This document shows positions 7,899-54,773 of a stretch of DNA of 64,000 nt, one piece after another (the stretch's first letter is position 1; each line of letters begins with the position of its first letter). The DNA comes from Alphaproteobacteria bacterium. GTDB taxonomy: Bacteria > Pseudomonadota > Alphaproteobacteria > SP197. A program made the position numbers and the translations under genes. Below the pieces are notes generated by a model. The model saw only the letters and a program-made list of their open reading frames with translations, was not told the DNA's origin and searched no databases. The DNA lies in the NCBI GenBank assembly GCA_964291265.2, contig OZ219747.1, positions 1,504,001-1,568,000 on the forward strand, read 5' to 3'.

Positions 7899-9464
7899 TC
7901 ATGCGGTCTCGGCGCGGATGTCGAGGAGGTTCCGCGCCTCGCGCCCGCAGGCCACGCCGACGAGGTGGACCGGGCCGCCGTGGTCGCGGTAGGTCTCGGC
8001 ATAGCCCCGCTCGCGCATCTGCGCCAGCGCCGCATCCAGCGCCGCAGCGCCGTCCCCCTCGCCCTCGGCCATCTTGAACTCCAGCACGAAGACCTGACCG
8101 CCGAGGCGCACCACCATGTCCGCACGACCACGGTGCGAGGCCTCCTCCACGCTCAAATTCACCCCGACCGAACGCAGGCACATGTAGAGAAGGCTCGCAT
8201 ACCAGGCCTCGTAGCGCGCCAGGTCGCCCTTCGCGTGCCACTGGTAGGGAATGCCCGCAAGCCAGGCGCGGAGCTTCTCGCCGAAGCCGGCGAAGTCGTT
8301 CGCCTCCAGCAGGGCGCAGAACTCGCGGCCCCGCTCCAGCGGCTCGACCCCCTGCCTGCCCAGCCAGGCAAGCAGTTCGTCGTTGAGGCTGAGCCGGACC
8401 TCGAGGTTGGGATAGTCCAGCCGGTAGAGGGTCCTGTGGCCCTGCTTCTCCTCCCCCGCGATGGTCAGGTAGCCGGTCTGGAAGAGCAGGGCCTCGATGG
8501 CGATGTCGTCGACATCGAACTTCGAGACCAGGGACGTGCCCGCCAGCCGTCCCTCCAGTTCCATCGGGCTCACCGACTTCTCCATCAGCATGCGGAACAG
8601 GAAGTCAGGAGATCCGGTCTCGAACCAGTAGGGACGAAACTCACGGCTCCGCAGGAACAGCAACACATCGTAGGGATTGTAGACCCGCACCCCGCCCCGC
8701 CAGTGGTAGCCGTTGTACCAGGTGCGGATCTCCTCGCGGTCCAGCCCGACCATCTCAGGGCCGAACACACGGTCGAGATCCTCCTCGCGGTAGCCGCAGA
8801 TCGTGGCAAAGCGCGGATCGAGGCTGATGTCCTCGAGGTTGTTGAGACCCGAGAACAGGCTGACTTTCGAGAACATGCTGACACCGGTGACGAAGACGAA
8901 ACGGACGTGTTCAGCGCTGTCCTTGACGATGCCGTAGAAGCCGCGCAGGTAGTCCCGGTTGGCCCTCGCAAGCTCGGGATCGTGGAGCACGTCAAGGATC
9001 GGCTTGTCGTACTCGTCCACCAGCACCACGACCTGCCGGCCGGTGGCGCCGTGCAGACGGTCAAGAAGATTCCGCAGACGCCTCGGACCGGTATCGGAGG
9101 TCCGAGCAGGCGGAAGATCATACCCGCGTTCCACGCTCTCCAGTTGCTCGATGATGTCCCCTTCGATCTCGCCCGGCTCGTTGTACTTCCCGCCGAAGCT
9201 CAGCCGCACCACCGGATGAGGTGCCGACCAGTCCCAGTGGGGGTGGATGTCGAGTCCCCGGAACAGGGGTTCGTGGCAGGCAAACAGCGACCGCAGGGTG
9301 TCGAGCAGCAGGCTCTTGCCGAAACGGCGCGGGCGGGACAGGAAGTAATGGTCACCCTGCTGGACCAAGTCTCGGATGAGAGGGGTCTTGTCGACATAGT
9401 AGCTGCCGGTCTCCCGGAGGCGCCGGAAGTCCTGGATCCCGATCGGAAGACGGCGGCGGATCAT
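7899..9464 (-). CDS. AAA-ATPase-like plus PD-(D/E)XK nuclease, copy 2 (tandem paralogue)
   Basis: Same motifs and same length (521 aa) as copy 1; long identical stretches. Confidence 0.9.
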   Translation of the reverse strand: MIRRRLPIGIQDFRRLRETGSYYVDKTPLIRDLVQQGDHYFLSRPRRFGKSLLLDTLRSLFACHEPLFRGLDIHPHWDWSAPHPVVRLSFGGKYNEPGEIEGDIIEQLESVERGYDLPPARTSDTGPRRLRNLLDRLHGATGRQVVVLVDEYDKPILDVLHDPELARANRDYLRGFYGIVKDSAEHVRFVFVTGVSMFSKVSLFSGLNNLEDISLDPRFATICGYREEDLDRVFGPEMVGLDREEIRTWYNGYHWRGGVRVYNPYDVLLFLRSREFRPYWFETGSPDFLFRMLMEKSVSPMELEGRLAGTSLVSKFDVDDIAIEALLFQTGYLTIAGEEKQGHRTLYRLDYPNLEVRLSLNDELLAWLGRQGVEPLERGREFCALLEANDFAGFGEKLRAWLAGIPYQWHAKGDLARYEAWYASLLYMCLRSVGVNLSVEEASHRGRADMVVRLGGQVFVLEFKMAEGEGDGAAALDAALAQMRERGYAETYRDHGGPVHLVGVACGREARNLLDIRAETA

Positions 9465-9496
9465 TGGTCTCTCCCTTCGTGACGCTGGAACCGGAC

Positions 9497-24103: not shown

Positions 24104-25402
24104 CCGTGGAACCGTCGGCGAGGCGCGGTGCCGTCGCCGCCTACATCGCCGTCACTGCAGCCTACTGGTCCTTCATGCTGACCGACGGCGCGCTCCGCAT
24201 GCTGGTTCTGCTGCACTTCCACACTCTCGGTTTTTCTCCCGTCCAACTCGCCTATCTTTTCCTGCTTTATGAGTTCATGGGCATTGTGACGAACCTGTCG
24301 GCGGGTTGGGTCGCAGCCCGTTTCGGGCTCACCTCCACGCTCCATGCCGGGCTCGCCCTCCAGGTCGTTGCCCTGGCGGCGCTGACGCAGCTCGACCCGG
24401 CCTGGGCGACGGCGCTTTCGGTCGCCTTCGTGATGGCGGCACAGGGCCTCTCCGGCATCGCCAAGGACCTCTCCAAGATGAGCGCCAAGAGCGCCGTCAG
24501 GATTCTCGCCCCGGCGACCGAGCAGGGTGCGCTGTTCCGCTGGACGGCGACGCTGACGGGCTCGAAGAACGCGGTGAAGGGCCTGGGCTTCCTCCTGGGC
24601 GCTGCCTTGTTGGCCCTGGCGGGCTTCGAGGCGTCGCTGGTCGGCATGGCGGCGGTCCTGGCGGTCATCCTCGCAGCCGTCATGGTCTGCATGCCGGCAG
24701 GCCTGCCGGGCGGCGACCGGAAGGCGACGTTCGGCGAGGTGTTCTCCAGGAGTCCGCTGGTGAACCGCTTGTCTGCGGGCTCGCCTGTTCCTCTTCGGTG
24801 CGCGCGATGTGTGGCTCGTCGTGGCGCTGCCCGTCTACTTCCACACCGTGCTGTCGGACGGAACGCTTGAATCGGACCGCGCCGCATTCTTCCTCGTCGG
24901 CAGCTTCATGGCGCTCTGGATCATTGGCTACGGGGTCATGCAGGTGCTGGCGCCGAAACTGTTGCGCGCGCGGGGGAGGAGCGCGGGCGACGTCATTCGA
25001 CTGGCGCGGTTCTGGGTCGGCGTGCTGACCCTGATTCCGGCCCTGCTGGCGGTGGCGGTCGCGGCCATGGAGGGGAGGGCGTTGACGGCTCTCCTGGTCG
25101 CGGCTCTGCTCGCCTTCGGCGCCGTGTTCGCCCTCAATTCCTCGCTCCACTCCTATCTGATCCTGGTGCTCGGCCGCACCGAACGCGTGACCATGGATGT
25201 CGGCTTCTACTACATGTCCAACGCCGCCGGACGCCTTGTCGGCACGCTGCTCTCCGGGCTCGGCTTCCAGGTCGGCGGCCTCGTCGCGAGCCTCGCGGTG
25301 GCGGCGGGCATGGCGGCGACGAGCCGGCTGTTTGCCGGCATGCTCGCCCGTCGCGCCTGCAGCGAGGAGGAACTGGGACATGAAACCGATGCACGGGAGT
25401 GA
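24100..25402 (+). CDS. arsJ: Organoarsenical efflux MFS transporter ArsJ; apparent 1-nt frameshift near 24778
   Basis: [58 protein letters not shown]; GTGA overlap with GAPDH. Confidence 0.88.
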
Positions 25403-26029: not shown

Positions 26030-27358
26030 ATGCCGGATACACGAACGATCAGGGTTCTGCCGGTCAACGACACGACCAACGGATGGAGCCGCATTCTCGG
26101 GCCACGGACACCGCGTTCTCCGCTTGCCGGGGATGTGGTGGCCGATTGGGTGGTCGTGGGAGCGGGTTGGGCCGGGCTGGCGGCGGCGCGGCGCCTCGCC
26201 GAAAACAGGCCGGATGACAGCGTCATCCTTCTCGATGCCGGCGAAGCGGGGGAGAATGCATCGGGACGCAACAGCGGCTTTGCCATCGACCTTCCTCACA
26301 ACGTCGGCGATTCGCTGGCTGAACTCGAGGGCAGCCAGCGCTTCATGGCCCTGGCGCGCGCTGCCATCGATCACCTCGACGGAGCGGTCCGGGACCACGG
26401 CATCGCCTGCGACTGGAGCCGGCGCGGCAAGTACCATACCGCCCGTTCGGAACGCGGAAGAAGGGAGATTCTCGAGCCCTTCGCCCGGGAACTCGAGGCC
26501 CTCGGCGAGCCCTTCCGCTGGCTGGACCGGGATGAGCTTGCGGGCGAGGTCGGGACATCGGCGTTCCACGCGGCGGTCTACACGCCAGGCTGTGTCCTCT
26601 TCAATCCCGCGGCGCTGACCCGTGGTCTGGCCGACCACCTTCCCGAGGGAGTCCGCCTCTGCGAGAACACGCCTGTCATATCGATGACCTTGCGAAACGG
26701 GGTGGAGCTCGCCACCCCGGGAGGCACCGTCCGCGCGGCGCGCATGATTCTCGCCACCAACGGCTTTGCCGGCGAGTTCGGGTTCTTCCGGCGCCGCCTC
26801 GTGCCGATCGCTGCCCATGCCAGCCTGACGCGCGTCCTGAACGAGGCGGAGCGCCTGGCGCTCGGAGGCAAGGACGACTGGGGAATCACGCCGGCCAACG
26901 CCATTGCCGGCATCACCATGCGGTTCACCAGGGATCATCGGATCCTGATCCGCCAGGGCTTCCGCTACGCACCCGAATTCCGCGTCACGAGAGCCGAACA
27001 GATGGCGGCGCGGCGCGCTCACGAGGCGCGTTTCCGGTCCCGGTTCCCCATGCTCGGCGACGTGACGATGGAGCATACCTGGACCGGGTTCATATGCCTG
27101 TCACGCAACGGTGCGCCGGGCTTCGGTCAGGTCGCCGGCCATGTCTGGGCTGCCGTTTGCCAGAACGCGGTCGGTGTCACCAAGGGTACCATCAGCGGGT
27201 TGCTCGCCGCCGACATGGCCAGTGGGCGCGACAACGGCCTCATCGCCGACATGGAGAGTCTCGGGAGTCCCCGGGTGCTTCCTCCCGCCTTGCTCACGCG
27301 TCTTGGCGTCAGGCTGCGCCTGGCCAGGGAAATCTGGTTCAACCGGCACGAGAAATAG
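26030..27358 (+). CDS. FAD-dependent oxidoreductase, DAO/PuuB-like family
   Basis: VVGAGWAGL, ASGRNSGF, LATNGF, WTGFIC; GGAG RBS. Confidence 0.85.
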   Translation: MPDTRTIRVLPVNDTTNGWSRILGPRTPRSPLAGDVVADWVVVGAGWAGLAAARRLAENRPDDSVILLDAGEAGENASGRNSGFAIDLPHNVGDSLAELEGSQRFMALARAAIDHLDGAVRDHGIACDWSRRGKYHTARSERGRREILEPFARELEALGEPFRWLDRDELAGEVGTSAFHAAVYTPGCVLFNPAALTRGLADHLPEGVRLCENTPVISMTLRNGVELATPGGTVRAARMILATNGFAGEFGFFRRRLVPIAAHASLTRVLNEAERLALGGKDDWGITPANAIAGITMRFTRDHRILIRQGFRYAPEFRVTRAEQMAARRAHEARFRSRFPMLGDVTMEHTWTGFICLSRNGAPGFGQVAGHVWAAVCQNAVGVTKGTISGLLAADMASGRDNGLIADMESLGSPRVLPPALLTRLGVRLRLAREIWFNRHEK

Positions 27359-37653: not shown

Positions 37654-38177
37654 ACTCCACGGCCCGGGAACGACGCGGCGTCTCCGGTTGGCCGCGACCC
37701 TTGCGGATGACGAAGCGAGGGATCCCGGACCCGCCCAGCCCATGACGTACAGGGGCCAACCATCAGCTGTTCGTCTCCGTCATTGGCCGCCAACGTGTTG
37801 GGATGAGCCGTCGCTGATGGGGAGCGAACGACGATGTCTGGCGCGGGAGCCGTCTGTGGTGCCGATCTCGAAGGAGGACAGAGAGTCGTTGCGACGGCCA
37901 GCTCATCCATGCCCGCACGGACACGCGGGCCGAACTCTCATGGAACCTCATCATTTCCGAAGCGCCTGGATTTGTGCACGCTCCCGGAATAATCGGCAGG
38001 TTGACGGCCTGAACAACCAAGCCCACGAAATGTAGTGCCTGGCAGGCCTCCTTGCCATCGCCACATGCCAGGCAAGAACTGCACCGGGTCAACCGGAAAC
38101 ATCGGAAACAATCGACTTCCTGGCGGGTGCGAGGTATCTCCCGCGGGGGAAATCAGGTCGGAACGTCTGAAACTCCT

Positions 38178-39110
38178 ATGAAAGGTCCTCTCTGCATCGA
38201 GCCAAGGCAGCATGGCTCCGCACTCCGCCGCGCTTGGGGAGGCCGCTTGCGAACGTATCGGCCGAAACTGACCGGCGGCGAACCGCGCTTCCATGCGATC
38301 CGCAAGGCCTTGGTCCGGGGGGAGCTTGTCCTGAACGGCTTCAACCGCTGGCGGCTCCTGCCGGCGACCAGCCCCGCGACCGGCTGGACCTTCGTGGAGG
38401 CGGGGAGGACGGAGGACGCAGGCAACACCGAAATCGGCATCGTCCGGCGCGAGATCGATACGCTGCGCATCGTCACAATGGACGAATCGACCGCCGAGGA
38501 GGTGGCAATGCGGCTTGAGGAAGAGGACGAGCGTTCACATCTCCTTGTCGCGCGACGGGACTGGGGCCAGCATCCTGCGCCCTGTCCGGCATTCCGGCGT
38601 GTTGTTGCATCTGCGAGAAGGCGCGGAATGGTGGTGCACGTCATCGCGGCCTTCGGAACCGAGGTATGCGTCGACGACGAGCTGTTCCGCGAGGCGCGGC
38701 AACGTTGGCGATTCGATAGAGAAACACTGTACCGGCCGCCACCACGGAGCTCGAGCATTGAACGACGATTCGGCGAGATGCTGGTCGCCGCTGGGTTCGA
38801 TCCGATCCCTCAGCATCCGGTAGCCCGCTACTTCCTGGACTTCTCCGTTGTCGGTCATGCGGACGGACTTCCCGTCAGGCTGGACATTGAGGTCGACGGG
38901 CGGCGCTGGCACGAGGAATTGCCGGGTCGCTACCGGGTCGAAGACGAGCGCCGAGATCGAATTCTGAAGTTGCTCGGATGGAGGCCCGTACGATTCTGGA
39001 CCGACGAGATCGAGCAGGACGAAGCGGGATCCATCGAACGAGTCCGCAGGGAAGCGGCGTCGGCGATGCCGCCCGCATCACGGAACACCATCATGGAGGA
39101 GGAGCCATGA
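38178..39110 (+). CDS. DUF559/Vsr-like endonuclease with an uncharacterised N-terminal domain (start uncertain, ORF open from 38052)
   Basis: SSIERRF, QHPVARYFLDF, IEVDGRRWH, DERRD..L..LGWRPVRFW; ATGA overlap with next gene. Confidence 0.8.
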   Translation: MKGPLCIEPRQHGSALRRAWGGRLRTYRPKLTGGEPRFHAIRKALVRGELVLNGFNRWRLLPATSPATGWTFVEAGRTEDAGNTEIGIVRREIDTLRIVTMDESTAEEVAMRLEEEDERSHLLVARRDWGQHPAPCPAFRRVVASARRRGMVVHVIAAFGTEVCVDDELFREARQRWRFDRETLYRPPPRSSSIERRFGEMLVAAGFDPIPQHPVARYFLDFSVVGHADGLPVRLDIEVDGRRWHEELPGRYRVEDERRDRILKLLGWRPVRFWTDEIEQDEAGSIERVRREAASAMPPASRNTIMEEEP

Positions 39111-40357
39111 CGACATCGGAGCCGACCCGCCGACAACGTCGCACAACGGGACTCTCGGTTGCGCTGCTCGCACTTGCGACCGTGGCGCTCGCGATCGCGT
39201 TCTCGGCAGTTGGCCAGGAGATTCTGACACTGCCGGACAGCCGGCAGGAGGCGGCAGAGATTGCTGCACGTCTGCCCGTGCTGCGGGCGGATCGGGATGC
39301 GCTGCTTGACGAGGTCGCGGCGCACAAGGCCGAGCTGTCGAGCCTGCGAACGAGGGTCGAAGAAGCTCGCGACATTGCTGGCAGGTTGCCGGACCTGCGC
39401 GCCGAGGAAACCAGAGCACGTGCCGAACGTGATCGCCTGACCAGGGAGGTGTCAGCCCTCGTCGCCGATCGGGATTCGCTGCGTGGAACGGTCGATCAGC
39501 TTGTTGAGCGGAGAAGGGGCTTCGAGGACGAGCACCAGAATCTCGTCGATAGATCCAAGGCGGATCGGGATGCGCTGCTTGACGAGGTCGCGGCGCACAA
39601 GGCCGAGCTGTCGAGCCTGCGAACGAGGGTCGAAGAAGCTCGCGACATTGCTGGCAGGTTGCCGGACCTGCGCGCCGAGGAAACCAGAGCACGTGCCGAA
39701 CGTGATCGCCTGACCAGGGAGGTGTCAGCCCTCGTCGCCGATCGGGATTCGCTGCGTGGAACGGTCGATCAGCTTGTTGAGCGGAGAAGGGGCTTCGAGG
39801 ACGAGCACCAGAATCTCGTCGATAGATCCGAGGCGGAACGGAAACGCTTGGATGAGGTTCGGCAGGCAGTCGGTGAAGGGCGAGCGTCCCTCACGCAGAT
39901 CAGGGACGAGCACGCCGCGCAGACCCAGAAACTCGCCCAGCTCATGACTGACCTCGCGGATACGGACCGGCTGCTCGAATCCAAGCGTGCGGAACTCAAG
40001 AGCCTTACCATCGAGGAGCAGGACTTGCGCACTCGAGTTGCGCGACTGCAGGAGGAAGGGGAGAAGCTTGAGATCGGGAACCAGCAGGCGGCGGATCAGT
40101 CGGCCACCCTTCACGAAGAACTTGCCAAGACACGCACCGCACTGACGACGATACAGGGACAACGCGACCAGGCCAGGGACGAGCTGGCCAGAGCCAGGGC
40201 GATGCGGGATGTCGAGCAAGCCAATCTGGAGACGGTGTCCATCCGGCTCCAGCATCTGACAAGCCTCGAAGCTCGGGCACAGCAGCAACTCCGCGCCATG
40301 ATTGAGGATCTGAGCGCAGTGGAACAGACCCGCACCGAATCGGAGTCGTCACAGTGA
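39107..40357 (+). CDS. Long coiled-coil protein with an N-terminal membrane anchor
   Basis: GGAGGAG RBS; hydrophobic LSVALLALATVALAIAFSAV then L/E/R/A heptads to the end. Confidence 0.85.
   Translation: MTTSEPTRRQRRTTGLSVALLALATVALAIAFSAVGQEILTLPDSRQEAAEIAARLPVLRADRDALLDEVAAHKAELSSLRTRVEEARDIAGRLPDLRAEETRARAERDRLTREVSALVADRDSLRGTVDQLVERRRGFEDEHQNLVDRSKADRDALLDEVAAHKAELSSLRTRVEEARDIAGRLPDLRAEETRARAERDRLTREVSALVADRDSLRGTVDQLVERRRGFEDEHQNLVDRSEAERKRLDEVRQAVGEGRASLTQIRDEHAAQTQKLAQLMTDLADTDRLLESKRAELKSLTIEEQDLRTRVARLQEEGEKLEIGNQQAADQSATLHEELAKTRTALTTIQGQRDQARDELARARAMRDVEQANLETVSIRLQHLTSLEARAQQQLRAMIEDLSAVEQTRTESESSQ
39286..39831 (+). repeat. In-frame 273-bp (91-aa) tandem duplication
   Basis: 39286-39558 and 39559-39831 are identical except one base near the unit end. 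Confidence 0.95.
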
Positions 40358-42345
40358 CAGTCGGCGAACTGGGTATCGGCGTCAATTTCGTCGGTATCGC
40401 GCTCATCGTGACCTTGGTCGCTCTGCTCGCGGCTGCATTCGTCATCGGGCGACTCGATCGGCAGAAACGCCATGGTGCGGAGGAGCGCTTGACTCAGGCA
40501 CTGCGGCTGGAACGAGCCAGGGAGGAAGTGCAGATTGACAACCTGCGCAAGGAGAAGGAAGGCATCCTGAAGGCGGCCCTTCGGGCGGAGGACGCGCAGG
40601 AGCGTTGGGAGACGGTCAAGCGCGATCACGAGCAGCTCGAGGCAATGCGCCGGGAACTGGACGACTTCGAACGGGAGGAATCGAAACGTATCGACGAACT
40701 CGAACGACACCGGGTCGAAGCCGCACGGCGGCTCGGAGATGTCCAGGCGGCCCTCGATCAGTACCCGCCGGAAATCGTCGGGAACGAGAGCATCTGGGAT
40801 GAGGTGATTGCCAGGCGCAAGGAGGACTTCGATCGGCTGCGAGAGCATATCGATGCCGCCGAGAAGGAGTACGAGGAAGCCGACGCTCGGCGCACGCGGG
40901 CGGCAAGCGAAACGGAATATCTCGAAGGAAAGAAGTCACGCCTCGACGGAGAAATCGAAGAGGCCCGAGGTCTGCTCGACCAGATTACGCAAGGCCAGAT
41001 CGACGGATTGAAGCCGCTCAACGAGCGGCTCGTCGAAGAGGCGAAGCGGCTTCAGAACGAGATCGAGGGCCTGCAAGAGAAGTGGAACACGATGCAGAAA
41101 GATCTCAAGAACGCCACAGGCTCACAGGTCGGGCGTGTCATCGAGAAGCTCGCCGCGTTCCGGAGCACACCGGATTGCCTGCTGGGATTCGAGGAGGCGC
41201 GGCCGGAGACCGAAACCGATGAAGACATGTTGCTGAGCACATTCGAGGATGCCTTGAGGGATCGCGGACTACAATACTCGAAGCGAATCATCCGGGCCTT
41301 TCACACGGCCCTGAAGGTGAACGATCTCTCTCCGCTGACGGTGCTGAGTGGACTGAGCGGAACCGGAAAGAGCCAGCTCCCCAGAGCCTATGCCCGGTTC
41401 TTCGGGATTCATTTCCTGCACGTGCCAGTCGAACCCGGTTGGGACTCGCCGCAGGATCTCCTCGGTTTCTACGATTTCGTGGCGGAACGCTACCGGCCCA
41501 CGGACCGAGCCCGCGCCCTTGGCCATTTCGACAGCCGATTCGCGAAGGAGATCGGGATCGCGGAAGGCCGCAATTGGAACGAAAGGATGCTCATCATCCT
41601 GCTCGACGAGATGAATCTCGCACGCACGGAGTACTACTTCTCCGAGTTTCTCTCGAGGCTCGAGATGCGGGGGCCACGGGGTGGCGAGCAGGCCGAGGGC
41701 AGCCTCGGGGACGCGCAGATCGCCATCGATCTGCCCTACGCCGAAAACGAGCCTCCGAAACACCTTTATGTCCCGCACAACATCCTCTGGGTCGGGACCC
41801 TGAACGAGGATGAGACAACTCAGGCACTCTCGGACAAGGTTCTGGACCGGGCAAACTCCATCCGCTTCGCACCCCCCGAGCCCAACACCCTTCGCTCGCA
41901 CAGCAAGGCACCGGAATCCGGAATCGCGCCAGCTTCCGGCTACCTGCCCTACCAGCGATGGCTCACATGGTCCAACCGCGGTACGACGGTCGAAATGGGA
42001 GCCGGAGAACAGGTCGACAAAACCCTCGAAACCCTCGCGCGCTGTATGCAGGAAGCGAAACGGGGGTTCGGCTACCGAATCGTACAGAGCATCAGGGCCT
42101 ATATCGAGCACTATCCCGGCCAGGATTGGCGTCAGCCCATGGTCGATCAGATCAACATGCGCCTTCTCCCGAAGCTCTCCGGCGCGGAGATGAGCGAATG
42201 CCACGACAGCCTGGAAGAGCTGAAGCGGACTTGCGAGGAAGAGCTTGGCGATGATGACTTCGCGGAAGCGTTGCAGCGTGCCGTGACCGAGTCCCAATTC
42301 TCGCAGATCTTCACGTGGCCCGGTTATTCTTACAAGCAGGAATAG
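40354..42345 (+). CDS. McrB-like AAA+ NTPase with N-terminal TM helix and long coiled coil
   Basis: GLSGTGKS, VEPGWDSPQDLLG, LLDEMNLARTEYYFSEFLSRLE, GTLNEDET (NxD), DKVLDRAN; GTGA overlap. Confidence 0.9.
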   Translation: MTVGELGIGVNFVGIALIVTLVALLAAAFVIGRLDRQKRHGAEERLTQALRLERAREEVQIDNLRKEKEGILKAALRAEDAQERWETVKRDHEQLEAMRRELDDFEREESKRIDELERHRVEAARRLGDVQAALDQYPPEIVGNESIWDEVIARRKEDFDRLREHIDAAEKEYEEADARRTRAASETEYLEGKKSRLDGEIEEARGLLDQITQGQIDGLKPLNERLVEEAKRLQNEIEGLQEKWNTMQKDLKNATGSQVGRVIEKLAAFRSTPDCLLGFEEARPETETDEDMLLSTFEDALRDRGLQYSKRIIRAFHTALKVNDLSPLTVLSGLSGTGKSQLPRAYARFFGIHFLHVPVEPGWDSPQDLLGFYDFVAERYRPTDRARALGHFDSRFAKEIGIAEGRNWNERMLIILLDEMNLARTEYYFSEFLSRLEMRGPRGGEQAEGSLGDAQIAIDLPYAENEPPKHLYVPHNILWVGTLNEDETTQALSDKVLDRANSIRFAPPEPNTLRSHSKAPESGIAPASGYLPYQRWLTWSNRGTTVEMGAGEQVDKTLETLARCMQEAKRGFGYRIVQSIRAYIEHYPGQDWRQPMVDQINMRLLPKLSGAEMSECHDSLEELKRTCEEELGDDDFAEALQRAVTESQFSQIFTWPGYSYKQE

Positions 42346-42371
42346 AGGGCTCGGGCGAGAGACCGACCGCC

Positions 42372-43838
42372 ATGTGGCTGTATGAGTCCTATCGAGAATT
42401 CAGTCGCGAGGCGGCGGGAGTTGCCGTAGCGAAAACCCGGCCCATCGTTGCCGAAAAAACAACACGGCTGTGTCTAGTCGGTACAGACGGGCCGCCCGTC
42501 ATCGTTGCTGCGACCGGGGAGATACCACAAGGCTACCCGATGCTGGAAGGCCCGCACCGCCAGACGCTGCCCCGGGTGCCCGGTCGGTTGCGTGGTCGAA
42601 TCGTTGCGGGCACCTCCGAGGGACAGGAAATCCCCGACCGGCCTCTCGATGCGTGGCTCGTCCCCTGGGGCGTCGGCGAACAACGGACGATGCGCGTCAC
42701 CGTGAAGCCGGGGACCGTGCTCGACATGAATGTCGAGGGGTGGCGCAAGCATGGAGAGGAACGGAAGAGAGACCGAGTTCTGAGAAGGGCGGCCAAGGTT
42801 CTCGATATGACACCCGACGTATTTGCGGCGCAACCGGCGGTCGGGATCGCTTATGAGCAGCTGGAGGACATCTGGAACGATTCGAGCCTGGAGGAAGGGG
42901 ATCCGCAGGGTGAACTGCTCGCGAGGCACGCGAGACACCTGCGGCGCGTGCTTGAAGATCTCGGCGCTCGTCCGCGCGTCGCGCTTCGTACCGAACACCG
43001 ATTGCTCAAGCTTCAAACGGTTCACAGGACCGACGCGAAGACACTCCGGTGGCTCTCCGCTCAGCCCGGGCGAAACACCGCCGAACGGGCCGGCGTCCGA
43101 CAGAGGATGAAGGCTCCGAAACGCTACGAGACGCTCGCGACTCTCGAGAATCGGGTGCTGCGGGCGTTCGCGGCATTGACGGTACGGGAGACGAAGACCT
43201 GGCTCGAGAACACTGGTTCCAACGAGAACAGGGACGCAATCCTGGCCCACCAGCGCCGCACGCGCCGAATCGAGTCCGTTCTAAGAGATCGTCAGGTACC
43301 CGAAGCGAAACCTCCCGTTCGGCCCAACTTCGCCCTTCGCTTCGACCCGCGTTACCGGGAGATCTGGCGCGCCTGGATGGAGCTGCGGGCGCTGAACACC
43401 GCGACCGAACTTCAGTGGATGTGGCAACAGCGGACGTTCATGGAGCTTCTCGAATTCCGTGCGGCGATGAAGCTTCAGCAAGCAGTCCGGGACGGAAGGG
43501 ACGGCGGTACGCTTTCGCATGCTCCCGTGCTGAAGGCAAGGCATCCGCCGAATCAGGGACGCTACCTTCACGATGCCGGCATCCGTGCGACTTTCGGGAT
43601 CGTCGCCGATGGCACTGTCCGCGTCATCGAGTACGGAACGCTCGACGACAACCGGCCGCTCGGTGCTGTGGCACACACCGAGTCGGAGACCGCAGTCTGG
43701 TGGGACGTGGAGGACCTCCAAACAGGGCGGGAAGGTTCGGTCGGCGAGCTCCCCTGGACGGCCGGGCACGCGTGGGACACCGCCTTGCGCAGCTGGGCCG
43801 CAAGAGCCGCCACCCGAGATGAGCCCGGCCCGAGATGA
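42372..43838 (+). CDS. DUF2357-domain McrC-like partner
   Basis: TLENRVLRAF and PNFALRFDPRYREIWRAW follow the McrB-like gene; no clear C-terminal PD-(D/E)xK motif. Confidence 0.75.
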   Translation: MWLYESYREFSREAAGVAVAKTRPIVAEKTTRLCLVGTDGPPVIVAATGEIPQGYPMLEGPHRQTLPRVPGRLRGRIVAGTSEGQEIPDRPLDAWLVPWGVGEQRTMRVTVKPGTVLDMNVEGWRKHGEERKRDRVLRRAAKVLDMTPDVFAAQPAVGIAYEQLEDIWNDSSLEEGDPQGELLARHARHLRRVLEDLGARPRVALRTEHRLLKLQTVHRTDAKTLRWLSAQPGRNTAERAGVRQRMKAPKRYETLATLENRVLRAFAALTVRETKTWLENTGSNENRDAILAHQRRTRRIESVLRDRQVPEAKPPVRPNFALRFDPRYREIWRAWMELRALNTATELQWMWQQRTFMELLEFRAAMKLQQAVRDGRDGGTLSHAPVLKARHPPNQGRYLHDAGIRATFGIVADGTVRVIEYGTLDDNRPLGAVAHTESETAVWWDVEDLQTGREGSVGELPWTAGHAWDTALRSWAARAATRDEPGPR

Positions 43839-44223
43839 GTCGGTTCGTCACGGTCGACCTTAACGGCTGGCTTGATCATCTGGTCGACGAGGACAGGCAG
43901 GTGCGGACACTCGGTTTCCGGTCCTGCCTGTACAAACATGAGGGCACCTGGCTCTGCGGCGCCCAGGCGCTGGCCGCGGCCAGGGATTCCCGGATGGATC
44001 AACCGCTTGTCGTCGGAGCCGAGGCCCTGGACGGGGCGGCCGGACAGGGGATGAACCCGCCGGAGGGGCACGACGCTCTGCCGGCAGCCTTGTGGCAGCT
44101 TGCGGCAGACGCAGCCAGCAGGTCTCCGTCCGGCGGACCGATTCATCTGGCCCTCGTCATTCCGGACGATCAACATCTGGGGAGCGTGGAACCAGGCAAG
44201 ACAGGCAAAACAGCGGTAACTAC

Positions 44224-45702
44224 TCACCCCTTGTTAGGGTCTGGTTGTCCGTAGTGCTGGTTGAGGATGTCTACGGCCTTTCCGTCGAGGGCGATGTGGA
44301 TGGCGACGTGAGGGTTGTAGCCGAGTGCGTCCATGGTGGTGAGGTAGCTTGAGCCGCGGCACCATGCTTTGGCGTGGGGCATGGTACGGAAACATCCGGA
44401 CACCTTGATCTTGACCTTTGTCATCCTGATCTTCTGCTCTCCGGTATTATTTGTGAAACTGACATTGGGGTCCTTCATGAAGCGCAGGACGGACTTCTCG
44501 TGTTTCACGAGACGTTCATGCAGGTTGTGCGCGTCGGACTTTGCGATGCGTCCCCGTTTTCCTTTCGTCCGTGGCGGGATGTCGGGCAGTTCCCTGGCGC
44601 CCTGGGTGAGGATGGTGCGGTAGCGCTTGCGCACGGCCCGGCGGTCGGCCTCGTTCAAGGTCTTGGATGCGCTCTTGTTGACCCTGCGGGAGACCTCGCG
44701 CAGCAGGCTTTTCATCAGTCGCGCCCAGCGGTAGCCGTTGGACTCGACGACGAAGGTCAGTTCGCGCAGGAGATGGCTGCCGCACAGTTGGTGGCGGCAT
44801 TGATCGTAGCCCATGTAGGCAGCCCAGCAGTCGTGGATCAGGACGCCCTTGTAGCGCGGGATGATGCCGATCTCTTCGATCGCCTCCCGGCCGCGCTTGG
44901 GGTGCGGGAACTTGCACGTCAGGGTGCCGTCGGTGACGACATGGAGCCATTGGGTCTTGCCGGCGACCCGGAAGCCGGTCTCGTCGACATGCAGGGCCGG
45001 TTGTTGCAGGAGATGGGCCACGGCGGCCTCCTCCCATGATGCGAGGGCATCGTGAAAGCGCCGGACATAGCCGAGGCAGGTCGCCTCGGAGAGCTTGATG
45101 CCGGAGATCGCGTGCACGAGCGAGACGGCACGACGCAGGGACAGCATCTGGGCGATCAGCAGGTTGATGACGAGGGCCTGGATGCTGACGCCATACTGCA
45201 GGGGGCCCGGCATGTTGTCTGGGAACCGGCCCTTGGTCCGGGTCCGGCACTTCGGGCATTCCTTGATCTCGGCTTCGACGCGGCGCTCGACGACTTCGAA
45301 CACGATGTCGTAGAGGACGCGGCACTCCCGGTCGACGGGGTCGACATCGTGGAGGTCGGCGCCGCAGGCGTCGCAGGCATCGACGACGATCGTCTCCTCG
45401 ACGGTGGTCGTGCGCAGGTTGTCGCCCGTCTGCTGGTTCGGTTTCGGGCCCTTGCCGTGGCTCCCGGTGCGCCTCGCGCTCTCGTCCTTGTCAGTCTGCG
45501 ATGGCGGCAGACCGGAGTTCCGGCTTGTCTTGCGTGTGATCTTCTCCATGAGCACGGTCAGCAACAGCTTTATCAGCATCAGCATGCCGCGGAAGAGCTC
45601 CTCGCACTCCTGGTTGACCTTGCCCTGCTTGCGGAGATCCTGGAACTGCTTCTGGAAGACGTCGGCCTCCTGGCGCACAGACGTGCCGTTCACGCTCGCC
45701 AT
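44224..45702 (-). CDS. IS66-family transposase (single-ORF type)
   Basis: SRNSGLPPSQ, CDAC/CPKC, LHVDETG, LIHDCW, HQLCGSHLLREL, FTNNTGEQKIR. Confidence 0.93.
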   Translation of the reverse strand: MASVNGTSVRQEADVFQKQFQDLRKQGKVNQECEELFRGMLMLIKLLLTVLMEKITRKTSRNSGLPPSQTDKDESARRTGSHGKGPKPNQQTGDNLRTTTVEETIVVDACDACGADLHDVDPVDRECRVLYDIVFEVVERRVEAEIKECPKCRTRTKGRFPDNMPGPLQYGVSIQALVINLLIAQMLSLRRAVSLVHAISGIKLSEATCLGYVRRFHDALASWEEAAVAHLLQQPALHVDETGFRVAGKTQWLHVVTDGTLTCKFPHPKRGREAIEEIGIIPRYKGVLIHDCWAAYMGYDQCRHQLCGSHLLRELTFVVESNGYRWARLMKSLLREVSRRVNKSASKTLNEADRRAVRKRYRTILTQGARELPDIPPRTKGKRGRIAKSDAHNLHERLVKHEKSVLRFMKDPNVSFTNNTGEQKIRMTKVKIKVSGCFRTMPHAKAWCRGSSYLTTMDALGYNPHVAIHIALDGKAVDILNQHYGQPDPNKG

Positions 45703-46364
45703 GACGACGCCTCCACCGCCATGACAGCCGCCAGCACGGCGAGCCGCTCGCCTTCGGGCATCGTCCGGTAGCGCCGCGCCCAGCTCTCTGCGAGGCGCTT
45801 GATGCGCTGGCGGTCGATCGAGTTCCTGCCCGCACACGTATGCCAGTGCGGCCGGCCCGGTGCGAAGTTGAACCACAGCTTCTCGGTGACAACGCAGGCC
45901 TGGTTGTTGACCTGGACCTCGGCCGAGCGCCAGCCGGCGAGGTGCGTGTCGTAGAGCCGCGAGGGATAGCCGGAGATCATCACCTGGCAGGGCAGCGACG
46001 TCAGGATGTCGAGGAGCGCAACATGGTCATCGTCCGTGCAGTCGAAGCGGTAGCGGCGCTGCGACCGGCGCGTCGACTGCACGTAAGGCGGGTCGCAGTA
46101 GACCAGCTCGCGGCCCTGGAAGGCGAAGGTCTCGAGAAAACGCAGGGCGCAGCCTTGGTGAAGCTCCACCGGATAGTCACAGCGGAAGGTGTCGATCGCC
46201 CGTCGGTTGAGGTCGATGCCGATGCTGCGTAGCGCCGGAGGCTTGCGCTTCATGATCGCGCCGCCCCCAAGGAACGCCTCGATGTACACGTCATGCGGCG
46301 GCATGGCCGCGACGATCGCCTGGCTCAGACCCGTCGTCGCCTTCGATCCGTACCATGCCGCCAT
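45690..46364 (-). CDS. DNA adenine methyltransferase (Dam/D12-like, short form)
   Basis: YGSK, YIEAFLGGGA (SAM binding), VYCDPPY (catalytic), MISGY, TEKLWFN. Confidence 0.85.
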   Translation of the reverse strand: MAAWYGSKATTGLSQAIVAAMPPHDVYIEAFLGGGAIMKRKPPALRSIGIDLNRRAIDTFRCDYPVELHQGCALRFLETFAFQGRELVYCDPPYVQSTRRSQRRYRFDCTDDDHVALLDILTSLPCQVMISGYPSRLYDTHLAGWRSAEVQVNNQACVVTEKLWFNFAPGRPHWHTCAGRNSIDRQRIKRLAESWARRYRTMPEGERLAVLAAVMAVEASSWRA

Positions 46365-48904
46365 CAATATCTCCGACGCAAACCGCCCCGATGGCCAGCA
46401 TGTAGAGTGCCCCTCCTACAATGTCAAGCGCATATCTCCAGAGGATTGGAAAGGCAGCCAACCGCTGTGGATGATTGCATCATCACGGGGACAAAACCTG
46501 GTCATACAAGGCCGGAACGTGGAGCTGAAGCCGAAGATCGATCCGCTTCTTGTCAGTCGGAACACGCACATCCGATCATCGGCAGCGAGCAAGTGAAGGC
46601 GGCAAGAGAAAATGCCGGATCCGAACCCGTCAGGAAAAACGATCCGTCATCAGTAGGGGGTGAGTAGTTACAAACAGCGCTCGAAACCCTCCATGAATCC
46701 ATCGAGAGCTCACGCCCCCATGCGCTTGCCGGGAACCGCGTTGAACTCGTGTGGCGCTCCGTGGCGGCGCTCAAGGCGATCATGAATCAGGGGAGGCTCG
46801 GGGGCGCGCCGGGCGCCGTCCTCGTGATCAGCGTCAACCGGAAGACGTACTGGACGGTCCTGGAGTTCCGCCCATGGTCCCGGGACGGTCAAGTCGGCGA
46901 CTCCCTCCATATCGTCCGAAGTCCCGTGATGGAGGATTGCGAGGAGAGCGAGGCGTGGACAGCCAGCAGGGCGCAGGCCATCCAGAACACGATGGACGCC
47001 CGGGGCATCGGCCACCGCGATCAGATTGGCCAATGGACGCGGTGGGTCGAGATCCTGGCGACGGGAATGGAAGCGAAGTCGCTCGCGAAGTTCGGAATCG
47101 ATGCCGACGCTATCGAGCATCGGAGCTGGCCGAAGCCGAACGGCGGATGGGAGATATGGTCCGGTACGCTGCCGATCACGGTGGCCATCCCGGTATCAGA
47201 CTCACTTCCGAGTGCGCTCGCGAAGAGGATCGAGAGCTTCCGAGACGGCTACGAGGGACCTCCCCTCGCGATCGTTGTCGATAGCCCCGCCGGGCCCGAG
47301 ATGATCGCTGCGTTCGAGACACGAGTTCGACAGCTTGCCGAGAGTGTCCCAGTCTATCGCGTGACGGGAGCTGACACAGCCCGGGCAGCAGGATGTCTCG
47401 CCGAGGCCCTGGGGCGGGATCCGGAGGCGCCCGCGTGGCTCGACGCGGTACCCGGCATCGAGATCGAGGTCCGCAAGGCAACGAAGGACGGTTCGACCGA
47501 GTCCAAAACCGAATGGATGACCGTCGTCCCCGGAACGGAGGCGATTCCGGCGGGCGAGGTCTACCGGACCCGCACCGATCCGAACCGGCACGTCACCCTG
47601 GCACCCGGCATCGAGCATGTGCACCTGCACCTTCGCCGAGGCCGGGATCATGAGTGGGACGAGCGGTACAGCGGTAGGGACACGGGACACACGATCCATC
47701 CCAGTGATCATGTCCGCATCGTGGAACCCCTCGCCCGAGTGCGACCGCTGTCGGGTGAAGCCCGGATAGAGATCGTCGAGCATCGTCCGGATGGCGAGGT
47801 GGAAGCGCTGCCTGGGTCGATGGGCATCAAGTGGAGCGACATGAGCAAGAAGCGCCCCGATGCACTCCGAAGCATCCCCGATCTGTACATTTTCCGGTCG
47901 GATGAAGGCGCATGGAATGAGCTGGAGTGTCTGCTCCGTCGAGTCATCGAAGAGAACAGCACTGACAAGGGAATCAGCCTCGATCTGAAGGATCGATTGT
48001 ACGAGTGCACGCAGAAGCAATGGCGAGAGCGGGTGTTTCCGCTGGGCTCGGACGGTGCGCCGCCCCGCGCCGACAATCCGCAACGCTACCGGAATTCGGA
48101 AAGGCTCCTGGTCGAATCGACCAATGCACTGCTCTCCGATCTTGAAAGGAACGTGGCGAGCAGCCGAAAGATCCAGGCAAAGGAGGCAAACCGGTTGCAC
48201 CTGCCGCTTACCTGGCTCTTCACTGGTTGTCCGGAGCGGACGATCGAAATCCTGCTCGACGCGATCGGAGATCCGGAAGGTCCCGCGGGGCGTGTGCTCC
48301 ACATGGAGAACGAGTTCTCCGCCTGGTCGATCTACTCGGGCGTCGGGCGAGCGGCGCGCAGCGAAGAAACATTGCGGGTTATATTCGACACGTTGATAGG
48401 GGCGTGGGAGAACAGGAAGAATCTGCCTCAGGACAGATTCCTGCTCGCTGCGGTGACGCATCCCATGGCGCGAAGAGTCGCGGTACGAAGAGTCCTCGGC
48501 GAGAGCCGGGAACGGTTCGATCGGGCAGGGCGCTTCCTGCGTCGGCATCTCGAGAACCTGCGGGAAGGCAATCACGATCCTCGGCCGCGATCCAGCCGGC
48601 GGAACGGGACGAATCCGAGCCTTGAGCTGCGATACGTGACGATGGGATACCGAGGGCTGTGCCAGATCAGGCATGTCAGACCGGACTGGTTCGATGCCGA
48701 CGGAGAAGACGCGAGGGACCTTTGCACGATGCTTCGTCAAGCCCGAAGAATTGGACGTCTTTTCGAGCAGGAGCTCGTGGACCGGACCGCACCTTATCTG
48801 ATCGGTAAAGGGGAGGATCCTTCGATGCCCGGGGGATTCTGATGAGACCGGTGGTATCCGAGTACGGACGACGTCGATGCAGCCCCCGGACTCATGACCC
48901 ACTT

Positions 48905-48960
48905 CAGACATCCTGACCTCGTCCAACAACAGGTGAGATGATTCCGGAGTGTTGCGCCGT
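48905..48960. mobile_element. Solo IS terminus related to the element at 10324-12770 (a second one at about 9709-9765)
   Basis: CAGACATCCTGACCTCGTCC at 9709 and 48905, one mismatch to the 16-bp IR; the two copies stay similar for about 55 bp. Confidence 0.65.
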
Positions 48961-49311
48961 CGATGTCTTGGGCGATGAGCAGAACCCGGACACGTCTGCA
49001 TGTCGACGCCGGCACGGCGCGGCCTTCGTCCAAACCCGCTTAGTGACGGCGCTCCGGCCGTCACTAACCAGAATCTTGCCGTCCAGCCCCCGAGGTAGGA
49101 GCCGGATGGATGAGCGTCCATGTCCGGATCTGTGCGCAGCAATGCGCATTCCTGCTGCGACCGCGCAGGGGGCACGCAAGATCCCGTCTACCCGGCATAC
49201 GCGCAGCGCGGGGTGCTGGGTAAGCAATGTGTTCACAGTGCTTGCGGAGTCACCGCTCCTGGTGGTGAGGTCTCTCGTGCCCGAGCACGGCGATGGAACC
49301 CCATCGCTTGC

Positions 49312-50202
49312 TCATGGCGCTTGATCTTTGAATACCTCTTTCCGGTGCCATGCGACAAATGCTGGAGCCGGCGTGTCAAGGACAAGCGTGGGCGTGAGCA
49401 GGGGCTTGGTGGCGTATTGCCCGAGTACGTCTTCCATGCCGTGTCCCTCCACCAATCTGGACACCTGGACCGTGCCCTCCTGCGCAGTGAAGGCACCGTC
49501 ATCAAAGAGCCTGTGATGGAGATTGCAAAGTGACAGTCCGTTGCGAACCTCGTCGGGGCCATTGGCCTCATGCCACTTGATGTGGGCTGCTTCGAGGGCT
49601 ATCGGCGAATCAACCATGAAAATCGAAAGTTCGCAGACGGCACATCGATAGCCATAGGCTTCAAGCACTCTGGGACGAAACGACGGATCACGCGCCCTGC
49701 GTCTCGACATCACGTATTCAGCCTCAACTCCGGCCGCTTCGAGGACTTCGTTCTGCAGGGTGTCTGGGAAGTGCTCATCCACCAGCTCAAGGGCAATCCG
49801 GAGAGCGCGTTCCTTGTCCTTTCGCAGTTCATCAAAGATGACTTTCGTAAAACCACCTCTGGCATTGTGTTCTCGGAGAGAGCCTATTTTTGCATCCTTG
49901 CTGGCGGTTTCTTCGATGAGATGCGCTTCCGGCACCTCCCACACGTTGTCATTGCGCAGTCGCCAGAATGGCTGTTCGGTGTGGATCCCGCGAGGTGGTC
50001 CGAATCGAGACCACAGTCTCCGCAACTCACGGTCAGCTTCGCCATACGAAACAAGACGCTCCTTGCCGGCGATGCATCGCCCGATCATCCACACGACAAG
50101 GAGTGGCTTCTGGGGAGCCCGCGTCGGACCCTCCTTCCATTTCCGGAGTGACCGGAACTGCCTCTCAAGATCAGGCTTCGATGTGGTATCGCGGATTGTC
50201 AT
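49312..50202 (-). CDS. SBD-HNH endonuclease, phosphorothioate-dependent restriction enzyme-like
   Basis: RAPQKPLL...EQPFWRLRNDNVWEV N-domain; RARDPSFR, CAVC, LEAAHIKW, NGLSLCNLHHRLFD. Confidence 0.8.
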   Translation of the reverse strand: MTIRDTTSKPDLERQFRSLRKWKEGPTRAPQKPLLVVWMIGRCIAGKERLVSYGEADRELRRLWSRFGPPRGIHTEQPFWRLRNDNVWEVPEAHLIEETASKDAKIGSLREHNARGGFTKVIFDELRKDKERALRIALELVDEHFPDTLQNEVLEAAGVEAEYVMSRRRARDPSFRPRVLEAYGYRCAVCELSIFMVDSPIALEAAHIKWHEANGPDEVRNGLSLCNLHHRLFDDGAFTAQEGTVQVSRLVEGHGMEDVLGQYATKPLLTPTLVLDTPAPAFVAWHRKEVFKDQAP

Positions 50203-50534
50203 CCTGATCGGCCATGACGCACCAGTTGTTGGCGGCAATCCTAACTGTCTGGCGGTCGGTACGCGACTGCCTGTGGTCGTATCAGGACCGGTCAATGCAG
50301 AACACACTGCCTTGCAACGCGCCAGAAGGGTCCTTGTGCCTGAGACAGTCGTCATCCCTTTCCGGACGGTGATCATGATCCGTGTGGTCCGTCGAAACGC
50401 AAGGGGGCAAGCAAGAGGGGGGCGAGCGGTGTTCAGATGCCAGCGTGCGGTGTCGGGCAACGCCGGGATCCACCCGGCTCCGTGCCTGGTGGCCGCCGCG
50501 CACGATGCTCGTGCCGTACCTGGTTTGCCTCCCG

Positions 50535-54101: not shown

Positions 54102-54773
54102 TCATTCGAGGACGCTGAGAACCTCAGTGCCTCGCTTGACGACAACGCGCCTTACGTGGTCGCGGATGTCGTCGACCGAATGATCGACGGCCAGTTCAAC
54201 CACGCGCTCCTGACGACCTCGCCGTTTGCGCCAGTGAGCGTAGGGATAATCGCGGATGCGCGCGAAGATCGTCTCGTCCCTGGAATGCGGCATCGGCTTG
54301 GTGCAACCGCTGTTGATGGGACAGAGCCAAATCGCCTCCCGATGTGCTTCAATCAGCGACATGGTATCGACTTCGAGAACATCGTGCTCCCGATCACGAT
54401 AGGCTCTGGCTCCGGTCAGTTTGTGGAGGCGTTCTTCCGAAAGCCAGAAGAAGGCCTTGGCGTTCAGCAATTCATACCAGTCCACCGGAGAAAGGCGGTC
54501 GGGCAGAGCCCTTTCAAGACCCGAATCGCTCATGGGCATTTGGTCGCGTACAACGGCTCGAGGCAGACCGACACCCGTCAGTTCAATGCTTTCCGGTCGG
54601 TGTCGGCTTTCGATCTCGGTCCGTTCTGGTGGCTCGACAGCGTAGAGATCCAGGAGGGCGCTGGTGCTCAGCAGGCCGTAACACTTGATCGATTCCCATG
54701 AACCCCGCTCCGCCATGTGATACAGCGTGGGACAGTCGGTCAACAGCTCGTCAAGTTCCGCTTCGGTCACCAC
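54102..54773 (-). CDS. Hypothetical protein with DarT-like ADP-ribosyltransferase-fold motifs
   Basis: LYHM...SI..YGLLS N-terminal motif, AFFW, INSG, C-terminal VVEL; GGAG RBS before GTG. Confidence 0.55.
   Translation of the reverse strand: MVTEAELDELLTDCPTLYHMAERGSWESIKCYGLLSTSALLDLYAVEPPERTEIESRHRPESIELTGVGLPRAVVRDQMPMSDSGLERALPDRLSPVDWYELLNAKAFFWLSEERLHKLTGARAYRDREHDVLEVDTMSLIEAHREAIWLCPINSGCTKPMPHSRDETIFARIRDYPYAHWRKRRGRQERVVELAVDHSVDDIRDHVRRVVVKRGTEVLSVLE

Follow-up and report, generated by a model that had tools for sequence, protein, structure and literature searches.

An IS66-type insertion sequence with a Upf31-family, Dam-fold gene that may repress its own promoter and the coupled transposase

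We analyzed a 64,000-nucleotide stretch of an alphaproteobacterial genome (GenBank assembly GCA_964291265.2, contig OZ219747.1, positions 1,504,001 to 1,568,000; hereafter the window), in which an insertion sequence (IS) of the IS66 family carries a gene for a methylase-like protein directly ahead of its transposase gene. We hold with moderate confidence that this is an active single-transposase IS66 whose Upf31-family, Dam-fold protein binds a palindrome in the promoter and represses its own gene and the coupled transposase gene. This reading builds on what could be established directly: the anatomy and copy number of the element, the homology of the protein and the fold of its model, the loss of the Dam target-recognition domain, the conservation of promoter and operator, and the exchange of the module between elements.

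Results

Anatomy and copies of the element

The element is bounded by 15-bp terminal inverted repeats (IRs) that are 100% complementary (44216-44230 and 46657-46671), and the 8-bp target duplication AAACAGCG is present on both flanks (44208-44215 and 46672-46679). Its two intact genes overlap by 13 nt (45690-45702). The length of this overlap is specific to the lineage; relatives mostly have 4-nt overlaps or short gaps. A first-pass annotation of the window had described the IRs, the duplication, the DPPY-type gene, the intact genes and the overlap, all of which agree with the coordinates and family matches. The parts of the element are:

44208-44215, no strand: target-site duplication, copy 1 (AAACAGCG)
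44216-44230, minus strand: right terminal IR, 15 bp, containing the transposase stop codon
44224-45702, minus strand: IS66 transposase, 492 aa, single-gene (ISBst12-like) type, from PF03050 and NF033517
45690-46364, minus strand: Upf31-family methylase-like protein, 224 aa from ATG, from homology to Upf31 and the model
46371-46374, minus strand: GGAG, from the sequence a likely ribosome-binding site, 6 nt ahead of the start codon (ATG at 46364)
46657-46671, minus strand: left terminal IR, 15 bp
46672-46679, no strand: target-site duplication, copy 2

Methyltransferase genes occur as passengers in other IS families. Here, the transposase matches PF03050 (144.9 bits, E 4e-42) and NF033517 (251.9 bits, cut-off 180), and by motif assignment D240, D291 and E422 are its likely catalytic residues. 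The 8-bp duplications and the short IRs beginning GTAA are IS66 traits. The accessory tnpA and tnpB genes of the classical three-gene IS66 are absent from the element; PF05717 (tnpB) has no match in it or anywhere in the genome, which was scored 100% complete. One transposase gene without accessory tnp genes is the arrangement of the ISBst12 group. Members of this group such as ISDge4 (PMC12898284) share with the element a single DDE transposase of about 450-490 aa, the lack of tnpB, GTAAC-type IRs and an 8-bp duplication, and ISDge4, a single-ORF IS66, transposes without a methylase-like gene. In contrast to that group, the transposase here comes after an extra conserved gene, which is predicted to be regulatory and has a promoter and operator of its own. 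A non-transposase gene within the IRs is also the hallmark of a transporter IS (tIS; term as in PMC9330008); however, the passenger gene here appears to be a regulator of the element and not host-benefit cargo. The element is an ISBst12-type IS66 and, in form, a transporter IS. A terminator-like hairpin in the left end (46616-46629, minus strand) might block read-in transcription; it was not above chance in shuffled sequences.

Comparison with the 4.83-Mb genome revealed at least 17 insertion sites. The methylase-like gene is aboard in all of them, and copies lacking it, which would have counted against the first-pass annotation, were not seen. Ten full-length copies are uninterrupted, three of which, including the window copy, are identical; six further two-ended copies are broken by later insertions, one is decayed, and there are many fragments besides. 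A perfect 8-bp duplication flanks 16 of the 17 two-ended sites, and every duplication is different. Given these duplications and the ten full-length copies, the architecture of the element is not due to chance. In twelve copies, the methylase-like protein is encoded at full length and differs by 0-4 substitutions.

Excising the element in silico together with one copy of the duplication restored a stop-free frame of 847 aa. The corresponding empty site (44207 joined to 46672) is present in the contigs of two runs from the same study (X2 and X3), whereas the contigs of run X1, possibly the source sample, contain the filled junction. The methylase-like gene is an integral component of a multicopy IS that was active recently. 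The 17 sites lie mostly in mobile or dispensable DNA. Family scans of 13 sites other than that in the window gave Pfam matches at six (Fic, an IS4-type transposase, an integrase, two IS66 transposases and TauD), with no restriction family among them.

The genome contains a second IS66 lineage of 2,442 bp (G000:C2:611342-613783 and 1235822-1238263, plus about six more long copies), whose transposase is 33% identical to that in the window and which carries the same methylase-like module. A single frameshift in the methylase-like gene is common to five of its eight long copies, two of which are identical at different sites; therefore, an intact gene in cis is not needed to jump. Two non-autonomous elements (G000:C1:67410-69774 and C2:860127-864855) have the same IS66-type ends and no transposase of their own; by inspection, they appear to carry an AAA-ATPase-nuclease gene.

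The methylase-like protein belongs to the Upf31 family

The open reading frame (ORF) at 46364..45690 (minus strand) encodes motif I as EAFLGGG and a DPPY motif. It matches PF02086 with 34.5 bits and TIGR00571 with 38.8 bits, below the cut-off of 114.85 for the latter. The DPPY is located at residue 91, as compared to about 181 in the Pfam profile. The best structural match of an AlphaFold2 model (pLDDT 84.7, pTM 0.74) is Escherichia coli Dam (EcoDam; Z 17.5, rmsd 2.4, 149 aligned). Model residues 2-168 span EcoDam 7-270 with just 149 residues aligned; the Dam target-recognition domain is thus absent. In the model, a Dam-fold core (1-168) is followed by a two-helix C-terminal domain (182-223; helices 182-200 and 204-223). 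The protein has the S-adenosylmethionine-binding motif I, the DPPY motif IV and the fold of the D12 class, and it lacks the target-recognition domain between the two motifs. With E. coli Dam, T4 Dam and DpnM, it shares the catalytic fold (Z 16.5-17.5) and the motif order, I then IV; however, about 95 Dam residues (the region of Y119/R124) have no counterpart, and the helical C-terminal domain is added. A sequence search of the PDB returned only DpnM (E 0.005) and two chance matches to repeat proteins.

Over its whole length, including the C-terminal domain, the protein is identical to Upf31 of pBP136 at 93 of 220 positions (42%, E 1e-61). Upf31 (upf31.0) is encoded by the IncP-1beta plasmids pBP136 and R751 (Elg et al. 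2025, PMC11997246). Both proteins have the two-domain build and DPPY, and both genes have a promoter combining TTGACA with an N10-spaced palindrome and an adjoining restriction-type site. With full-length homology and an inverted repeat in its own promoter, the IS protein is a member of the Upf31 family. It is not a complete Dam-type methylase. In contrast to Upf31, its gene is located inside an IS and coupled to a transposase; it has one operator in place of four clusters; the operator reads TGTAG/CTACA, not CATCG/CGATG; the C-terminal motif is NSID, not NFRE; and a KorB partner is not evident.

According to Elg et al. (PMC11997246), Upf31 represses its own promoter (from 4.76 to 0.09 XylE units), and repression requires the C-terminal domain and is abolished by F185A. 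Upf31 without the plasmid had no fitness cost. Neither GATC methylation nor methylation in SMRT (single-molecule real-time) sequencing was detected for Upf31: the SMRT test used an IPTG-induced expression vector in strain ER2796 without pBP136 and its operator clusters, and in JM110 with pBP136Km, GATC methylation was not seen in bulk genomic DNA. Elg et al. left methylation by Upf31 possible, and they describe the purpose of the IncP-1beta inverted repeats as unexplained. The term "insertion sequence" has zero occurrences in their text.

We retrieved 3,098 homologs of the methylase-like protein. Motif I, D51 and DPPY are nearly invariant, and 141 of 150 distant representatives retain DPPY. 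Cys72 is invariant in the IS clade, and Upf31 has Asp at this position, which we take to be motif III. The dN/dS ratio across 15 pairs is 0.10-0.35, and purifying selection is as strong as on the transposase. Residues 182/183 are Ser-Ile in the window protein and Phe-Thr in most relatives; Ser-Ile also occurs at locus L001. Two family members (P0179 and P0240) are fused to a C5-cytosine methylase or to DpdA, and the gene itself (45690-46364) has a weak PADLOC match to PD-Lambda-5_B (E 6e-6).

Repression independent of methylation has been proposed for EcoDam (PMC4417163), which we use as an analogy only. Binding of GTYTA by EcoDam was considered as the mechanism and rejected: some plasmid operators hold TAGAC/GTCTA, yet the Dam residues involved sit in the missing domain, and since the Y119/R124 region has no counterpart, this binding mode cannot be transferred.

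A conserved palindrome in the promoter

The predicted promoter and its surroundings contain the following features:

46422-46427, minus strand: -35 box TTGACA of the predicted promoter for the methylase-like gene and the transposase
46401-46420, no strand: predicted operator TGTAG-N10-CTACA, conserved in 92 distinct upstream sequences
46404-46399: predicted -10 box, overlapped by the right arm of the operator
46392-46397, no strand: TGGCCA palindrome, unique within the element, 3 nt beyond the operator and close to the predicted start of transcription

A TTGACA-like box served to anchor 156 of the 164 loci whose upstream DNA was long enough, and these gave 92 distinct sequences (one of them, L085, mis-anchored). 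Their consensus is TTGACA-N-CATAG-N10-CTAYG. The TAG positions of the operator are conserved at 96-98% and the CTA positions at 90-99%; the inner operator pairs are complementary in 90-96% of the sequences, the spacer pairs in 26-33%. Both outer pairs of the window operator are off the consensus, and its palindrome is still perfect. The -10 hexamer, at 17-bp spacing, shares bases with the right arm. pBP136 has the same promoter design at the same position (TTGACA-G-CATCG-N10-CGAGA). A consensus promoter scanner missed the window promoter because its -10 box lacks the last T. TAG-N10-CTA occurs once in the element, and no operator-like sites were found at the element's ends.

Three other explanations of the palindrome were discarded. 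An RNA hairpin does not fit a spacer that does not pair and a motif upstream of the predicted start. A universal target adenine at -11 does not fit the YN-type operators described below, which are devoid of that adenine. Genome-wide use or avoidance of TAG-N10-CTA was also considered; there are 48 sites, with 38 expected, and many of them are the IS promoters. Spacings 16 and 18 are equally frequent. Three plasmid homologs (L083:3167, L084:3227 and L085:3170) have an extra operator within their own coding sequence.

Protein residues vary together with operator bases

In 91 protein-operator pairs, residue 182 (F185 of Upf31) had the highest mutual information with operator position 25. His182 occurs with C in 18 of 18 cases, and Phe182 accompanies T in 58 cases, G in 10 and C in 2 (T or G in 68/70). 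The window protein combines Ser182 with C. In a tree of 56 rows, the His/C combination needs 1-3 origins, and the window protein is nested in the Phe clade; its Ser/C combination, in addition to His/C, therefore implies at least two independent shifts. Residue 183 tracks the inner base: FR occurs with CATCG (Upf31 and two chromosomal homologs), FT with CATAG, and YN with CACCG, the YN-type operator reading ACCG/CGGT. We infer that the basic helix of the C-terminal domain (residues about 181-200), and not the methylase core, reads the operator.

The module accompanies different transposases

The genome set comprises 80 loci, most of them multiple copies from about 20 genomes; in 77, a transposase follows the methylase-like gene. 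All 77 are of the IS66 family, 52 of the TnpC type and 25 like that of the window. For 80 metagenome loci, the next gene is an IS66 transposase in 64, IS701-like in two and IS4 in one (67 of 80 together); eight had no match, and five contigs ended too soon. Two loci (L154 and L171) have an unclassified transposase-like ORF of about 450-500 aa after the module, without a Pfam match for the L154 piece, and at three (L088, L089 and L137) an N-glycosylase/DNA lyase-like gene follows instead of a transposase (NF002305 matches at L089 and L137, a similar ORF at L088).

The window protein is sister (support 100/94) to proteins paired with transposases that are only 22-28% identical to the window transposase, and transposases 72% identical to it carry more distant methylase-like proteins. 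From these phylogenetic placements, the module has moved between transposase lineages. In the IS4-family case, the gene is located within that element's own IRs and 9-bp duplication. We found no IRs at the two IS701-like loci (L102 and L126); the left end of L126 is IS66-like.

The gene had been placed by the earlier annotation where classical IS66 elements have tnpA and tnpB. Both TnpC-type loci that were read over their whole length have tnpB and a tnpA-like ORF, which point inwards from the opposite end; the gene coexists with tnpB and therefore does not replace tnpA/B, and 52 of the 80 genome loci are of this TnpC type. The 3.2-kb IS66 elements in question (L025:3888-7099 and L013), in which the methylase-like gene and tnpC face converging tnpA-like and tnpB genes, reach 22 copies in one genome.

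Of 401 genomes of the phylum, 3 contain the module, and 7 of the 23 genomes of the genus contain the element. The family occurs on plasmids, prophage-like contigs and IS elements. It is often a lone cassette: 118 downstream ORFs fell into 59 clusters, and this clustering, made without a family scan, revealed no conserved downstream (toxin) partner of the phage homologs. From an Ogr-like ORF, the prophage-like contigs are presumably P2-like.

Restriction-type sites adjoin the operators

The TGGCCA beside the window operator is an MscI-type site; it is not clearly avoided in the host (0.93). At phage and plasmid loci, a 6-bp palindrome begins 0-5 nt after 87 of 159 distinct operators, as compared to a background of 8.5%. 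The most frequent palindromes are CTGCAG (24), CAGCTG (16), GGTACC (13) and TGGCCA (12). At an offset of 0-1, a palindrome is present in 80 of 162, and control spacings gave 0/17, 2/19, 2/26 and 1/37. In the 41-kb pBP136, all six CTGCAG (PstI) sites, both CTCGAG, three of the four GTCGAC and the single TCTAGA adjoin operators. Operator arrays interleaved with 6-bp restriction-type sites are located in pBP136 (L362) at 18-170, 6080-6220, 9271-9470, 25191-25255 and 26990-27145, and in the plasmid and prophage-like contigs L202-L361; one of the pBP136 clusters is near an annotated antirestriction gene.

In the IS promoters, GATC, GCWGC, GGWCC, GGCC or GANTC is found directly past the operator in 72 of 90 (column shuffles 36.5 +/- 3.9, maximum 50; spacer control 34), with a motif set that was picked after the data had been seen, in which GCWGC overlaps the -10 box, and with many loci being kin. 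An unselected palindrome test gave 64 of 91 (39.3 +/- 4.3; spacer controls 38 and 48). GATC begins at +32 in 28 of 91 IS promoters, and some adjoining sites are free of adenine (GGGCCC, CGGCCG and GGCC). Sensing of host methylation and local methylation are the leading ideas for the role of these sites. The literature searched, which did not extend to ISfinder and key reviews, contained no report of a Upf31-like gene in an IS or of restriction sites beside these operators. Older work reportedly noted the clustering of restriction sites near the IncP-1beta repeats, and absence from print is not established.

The interrupted operon

The element is inserted in the last gene of an operon with the following genes:

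38052-39110, plus strand: Vsr-like nuclease (true start uncertain), with a match confined to the C-terminal tail of the fused helicase-Vsr protein in intact relatives
38978-40357, plus strand: cnuA-like coiled-coil protein (true start uncertain)
40354-42345, plus strand: cnuB/McrB-like GTPase, which has a coiled coil and an NxD motif (GTLNEDETT)
42315-43838, plus strand: cnuC/McrC-like gene (DUF2357)
43835-44215, plus strand: 5' part (127 codons) of the interrupted cnuD-like gene
46680-48842, plus strand: 3' part (720 codons) of the interrupted cnuD-like gene, from a profile of three intact relatives

The cnuD-like gene is interrupted at codon 127 of 847. Its 3' part matches the profile of three intact relatives with E 1e-13 (among 5 test sequences), and a likeness of CnuD to Hsp70 (Atlas 0.81-0.83) is only a lead. 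With this query, cnuD was not found in 60 related genomes. The cnuB-like product is 40% identical to CnuB of the intact loci. Three related loci have helicase-Vsr, cnuA, cnuB, cnuC and cnuD in this order, the helicase gene being in two pieces in one of them. The arrangement resembles a type III-B CoCoNuT (Bell et al. 2024, PMC11090510) in its Vsr-like nuclease, separate coiled-coil CnuA, coiled-coil GTPase with NxD motif, DUF2357 CnuC and separate CnuD; it differs in that the superfamily 1 helicase normally fused to the Vsr-like nuclease is missing and cnuD is interrupted. The helicase-less join is identical in the contigs of all three runs, so the loss of the helicase predates the insertion. 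The description of the locus as McrBC-like holds loosely; the operon resembles a helicase-less type III-B CoCoNuT, and its GTPase has the variant NxD in place of the NxxD of classical McrBC, a modification-dependent DNA restriction system. The active McrC nuclease of that system is of the PD-(D/E)xK type; family scans of the locus gave no match to an McrC nuclease family.

Two helicase-Vsr genes elsewhere in the genome (G000:C2 about 1,059,000-1,061,300 and 2,295,900-2,298,200) could partner the operon in trans. Directly downstream of the operon (49312-50373, minus strand), there is a phosphorothioated-DNA-binding HNH restriction endonuclease gene (NF045808, above cut-off). Between cnuD and this gene lies a high-copy repeat (48925-49241; very high contig depth, loose ends at 49076), probably a miniature element. 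A DUF7002 protein is encoded at 54102-54773 (minus strand).

Whether the insertion was selected for disabling a defence system that would attack methylated DNA is a separate question. The element breaks cnuD early and may be polar; however, this is one of 17 sites, no restriction family was found at the 13 others scanned, and the empty allele persists in two runs, in sibling strains. Moreover, CnuC of type III CoCoNuTs is described as lacking the nuclease motif, with an action on RNA predicted (PMC11090510), and the helicase is absent from the locus even in the runs with the empty site. Selection, as the first-pass annotation had proposed, is not borne out and seems quite unlikely to us; the insertion is likely one neutral hop among many.

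Discussion

In the reading we favor, the protein would bind TGTAG-N10-CTACA across the predicted promoter, probably as a dimer, as the palindrome and the modelling of Upf31 suggest. By analogy with Upf31, binding would repress the methylase-like gene and the coupled transposase gene, and it could do so in trans across copies. When the element enters a cell without repressor, repression would lift and a burst of transposase would follow. The earlier annotation had allowed for a role in regulation; such a role fits the promoter and not the ends, which have no operator-like site. The DPPY pocket may methylate the restriction-type site beside the operator or only probe it.

Several observations weigh against autorepression by binding. 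The conservation of DPPY is hard to explain if catalysis is irrelevant. Part of the conservation of the right arm is driven by the promoter because the arm doubles as -10 box. His182 may have a single origin, and perfect operators are a minority among the phage homologs (FT 3/5, FR 1/7, YN 13/68). The window lineage could be a weak repressor, since Ser-Ile replaces the usual Phe-Thr and Upf31 F185A lost repression. Finally, the frameshifted copies of the second lineage could depend on intact copies for a function that is required and provided in trans.

Dam controls transposition of IS10 and IS50, and a self-contained version of such control would be a tethered, active methylase: the C-terminal helix would hold the protein on the operator, a base within or next to the operator would be methylated by the core, and loss of the mark on replication or transfer would act as the switch. 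The near-invariance of motif I, D51 and DPPY, the Dam-like fold and the GATC at +32 in 28 of 91 IS promoters fit this possibility, and the SMRT test of Upf31 was run without the operator clusters of pBP136 (PMC11997246). It nevertheless strikes us as rather unlikely: the operator types do not all share an adenine, as the YN type reads ACCG/CGGT; some adjoining sites have no adenine at all; Upf31 has Asp in place of the Cys72 that is invariant in the IS clade; and bulk genomic DNA of JM110 with pBP136Km showed no GATC methylation (PMC11997246). A broad-specificity methylase, made in a burst on arrival to methylate the element or its transposition intermediates against restriction and then autorepressed, is less likely again. 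A core without target-recognition domain could be non-specific, operators adjoin restriction-type sites, and the family, in many cases as a lone cassette, is carried by plasmids, prophage-like contigs and IS. However, frameshifted copies still moved, and induced Upf31 gave no SMRT signal and had no fitness cost without the plasmid (PMC11997246). The broad protection of DNA or change of the methylome suggested at first is not borne out: Upf31, the closest relative with test data, gave neither GATC nor SMRT methylation in those experiments but acted as a repressor of its own promoter, and the protein lacks the target-recognition domain of Dam.

The gene's upstream position, its overlap with the transposase start and the absence of tnpB from the genome would suit an accessory of transposition that replaces TnpA/TnpB or acts on the ends. 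This is very improbable given that the gene coexists with tnpB in the 3.2-kb relatives, has changed partners among transposases that share only 22-28% identity, accompanies an IS4-family transposase within that element's IRs and 9-bp duplication, and has no operator-like site at the ends; ISDge4 transposes without it (PMC12898284). That the gene is inert cargo, as the frameshifts in some second-lineage copies might suggest, is hardly credible in view of purifying selection as strong as on the transposase, the dedicated promoter and operator, and the transposase that follows in 77/80 genome and 67/80 metagenome loci.

Binding autorepression remains our preferred reading of the IS gene. For the family as a whole, we offer a speculative and, at present, doubtful extension: Upf31-family proteins would be methylation-sensing switches, in which the helix coded by residues 182/183 docks a dimer on the N10 operator so that the Dam-type pocket faces the adjoining restriction-modification site. 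IS elements, plasmids and prophages would thereby read host methylation, and IS66 and IS4 elements would gate their transposase on it. If so, the unexplained repeat clusters of the IncP-1beta plasmids would also be accounted for. The family-level pattern makes this puzzle testable, and the residue-operator code allows direct swap experiments.

The single insertion is itself of little importance. The regulation of IS66 has so far been poorly described, and a portable repressor cassette common to several transposase lineages would be a distinct way for IS elements to limit their own copy number. With 3,098 homologs, many IS proteins annotated as "DNA adenine methylase" may be regulators.

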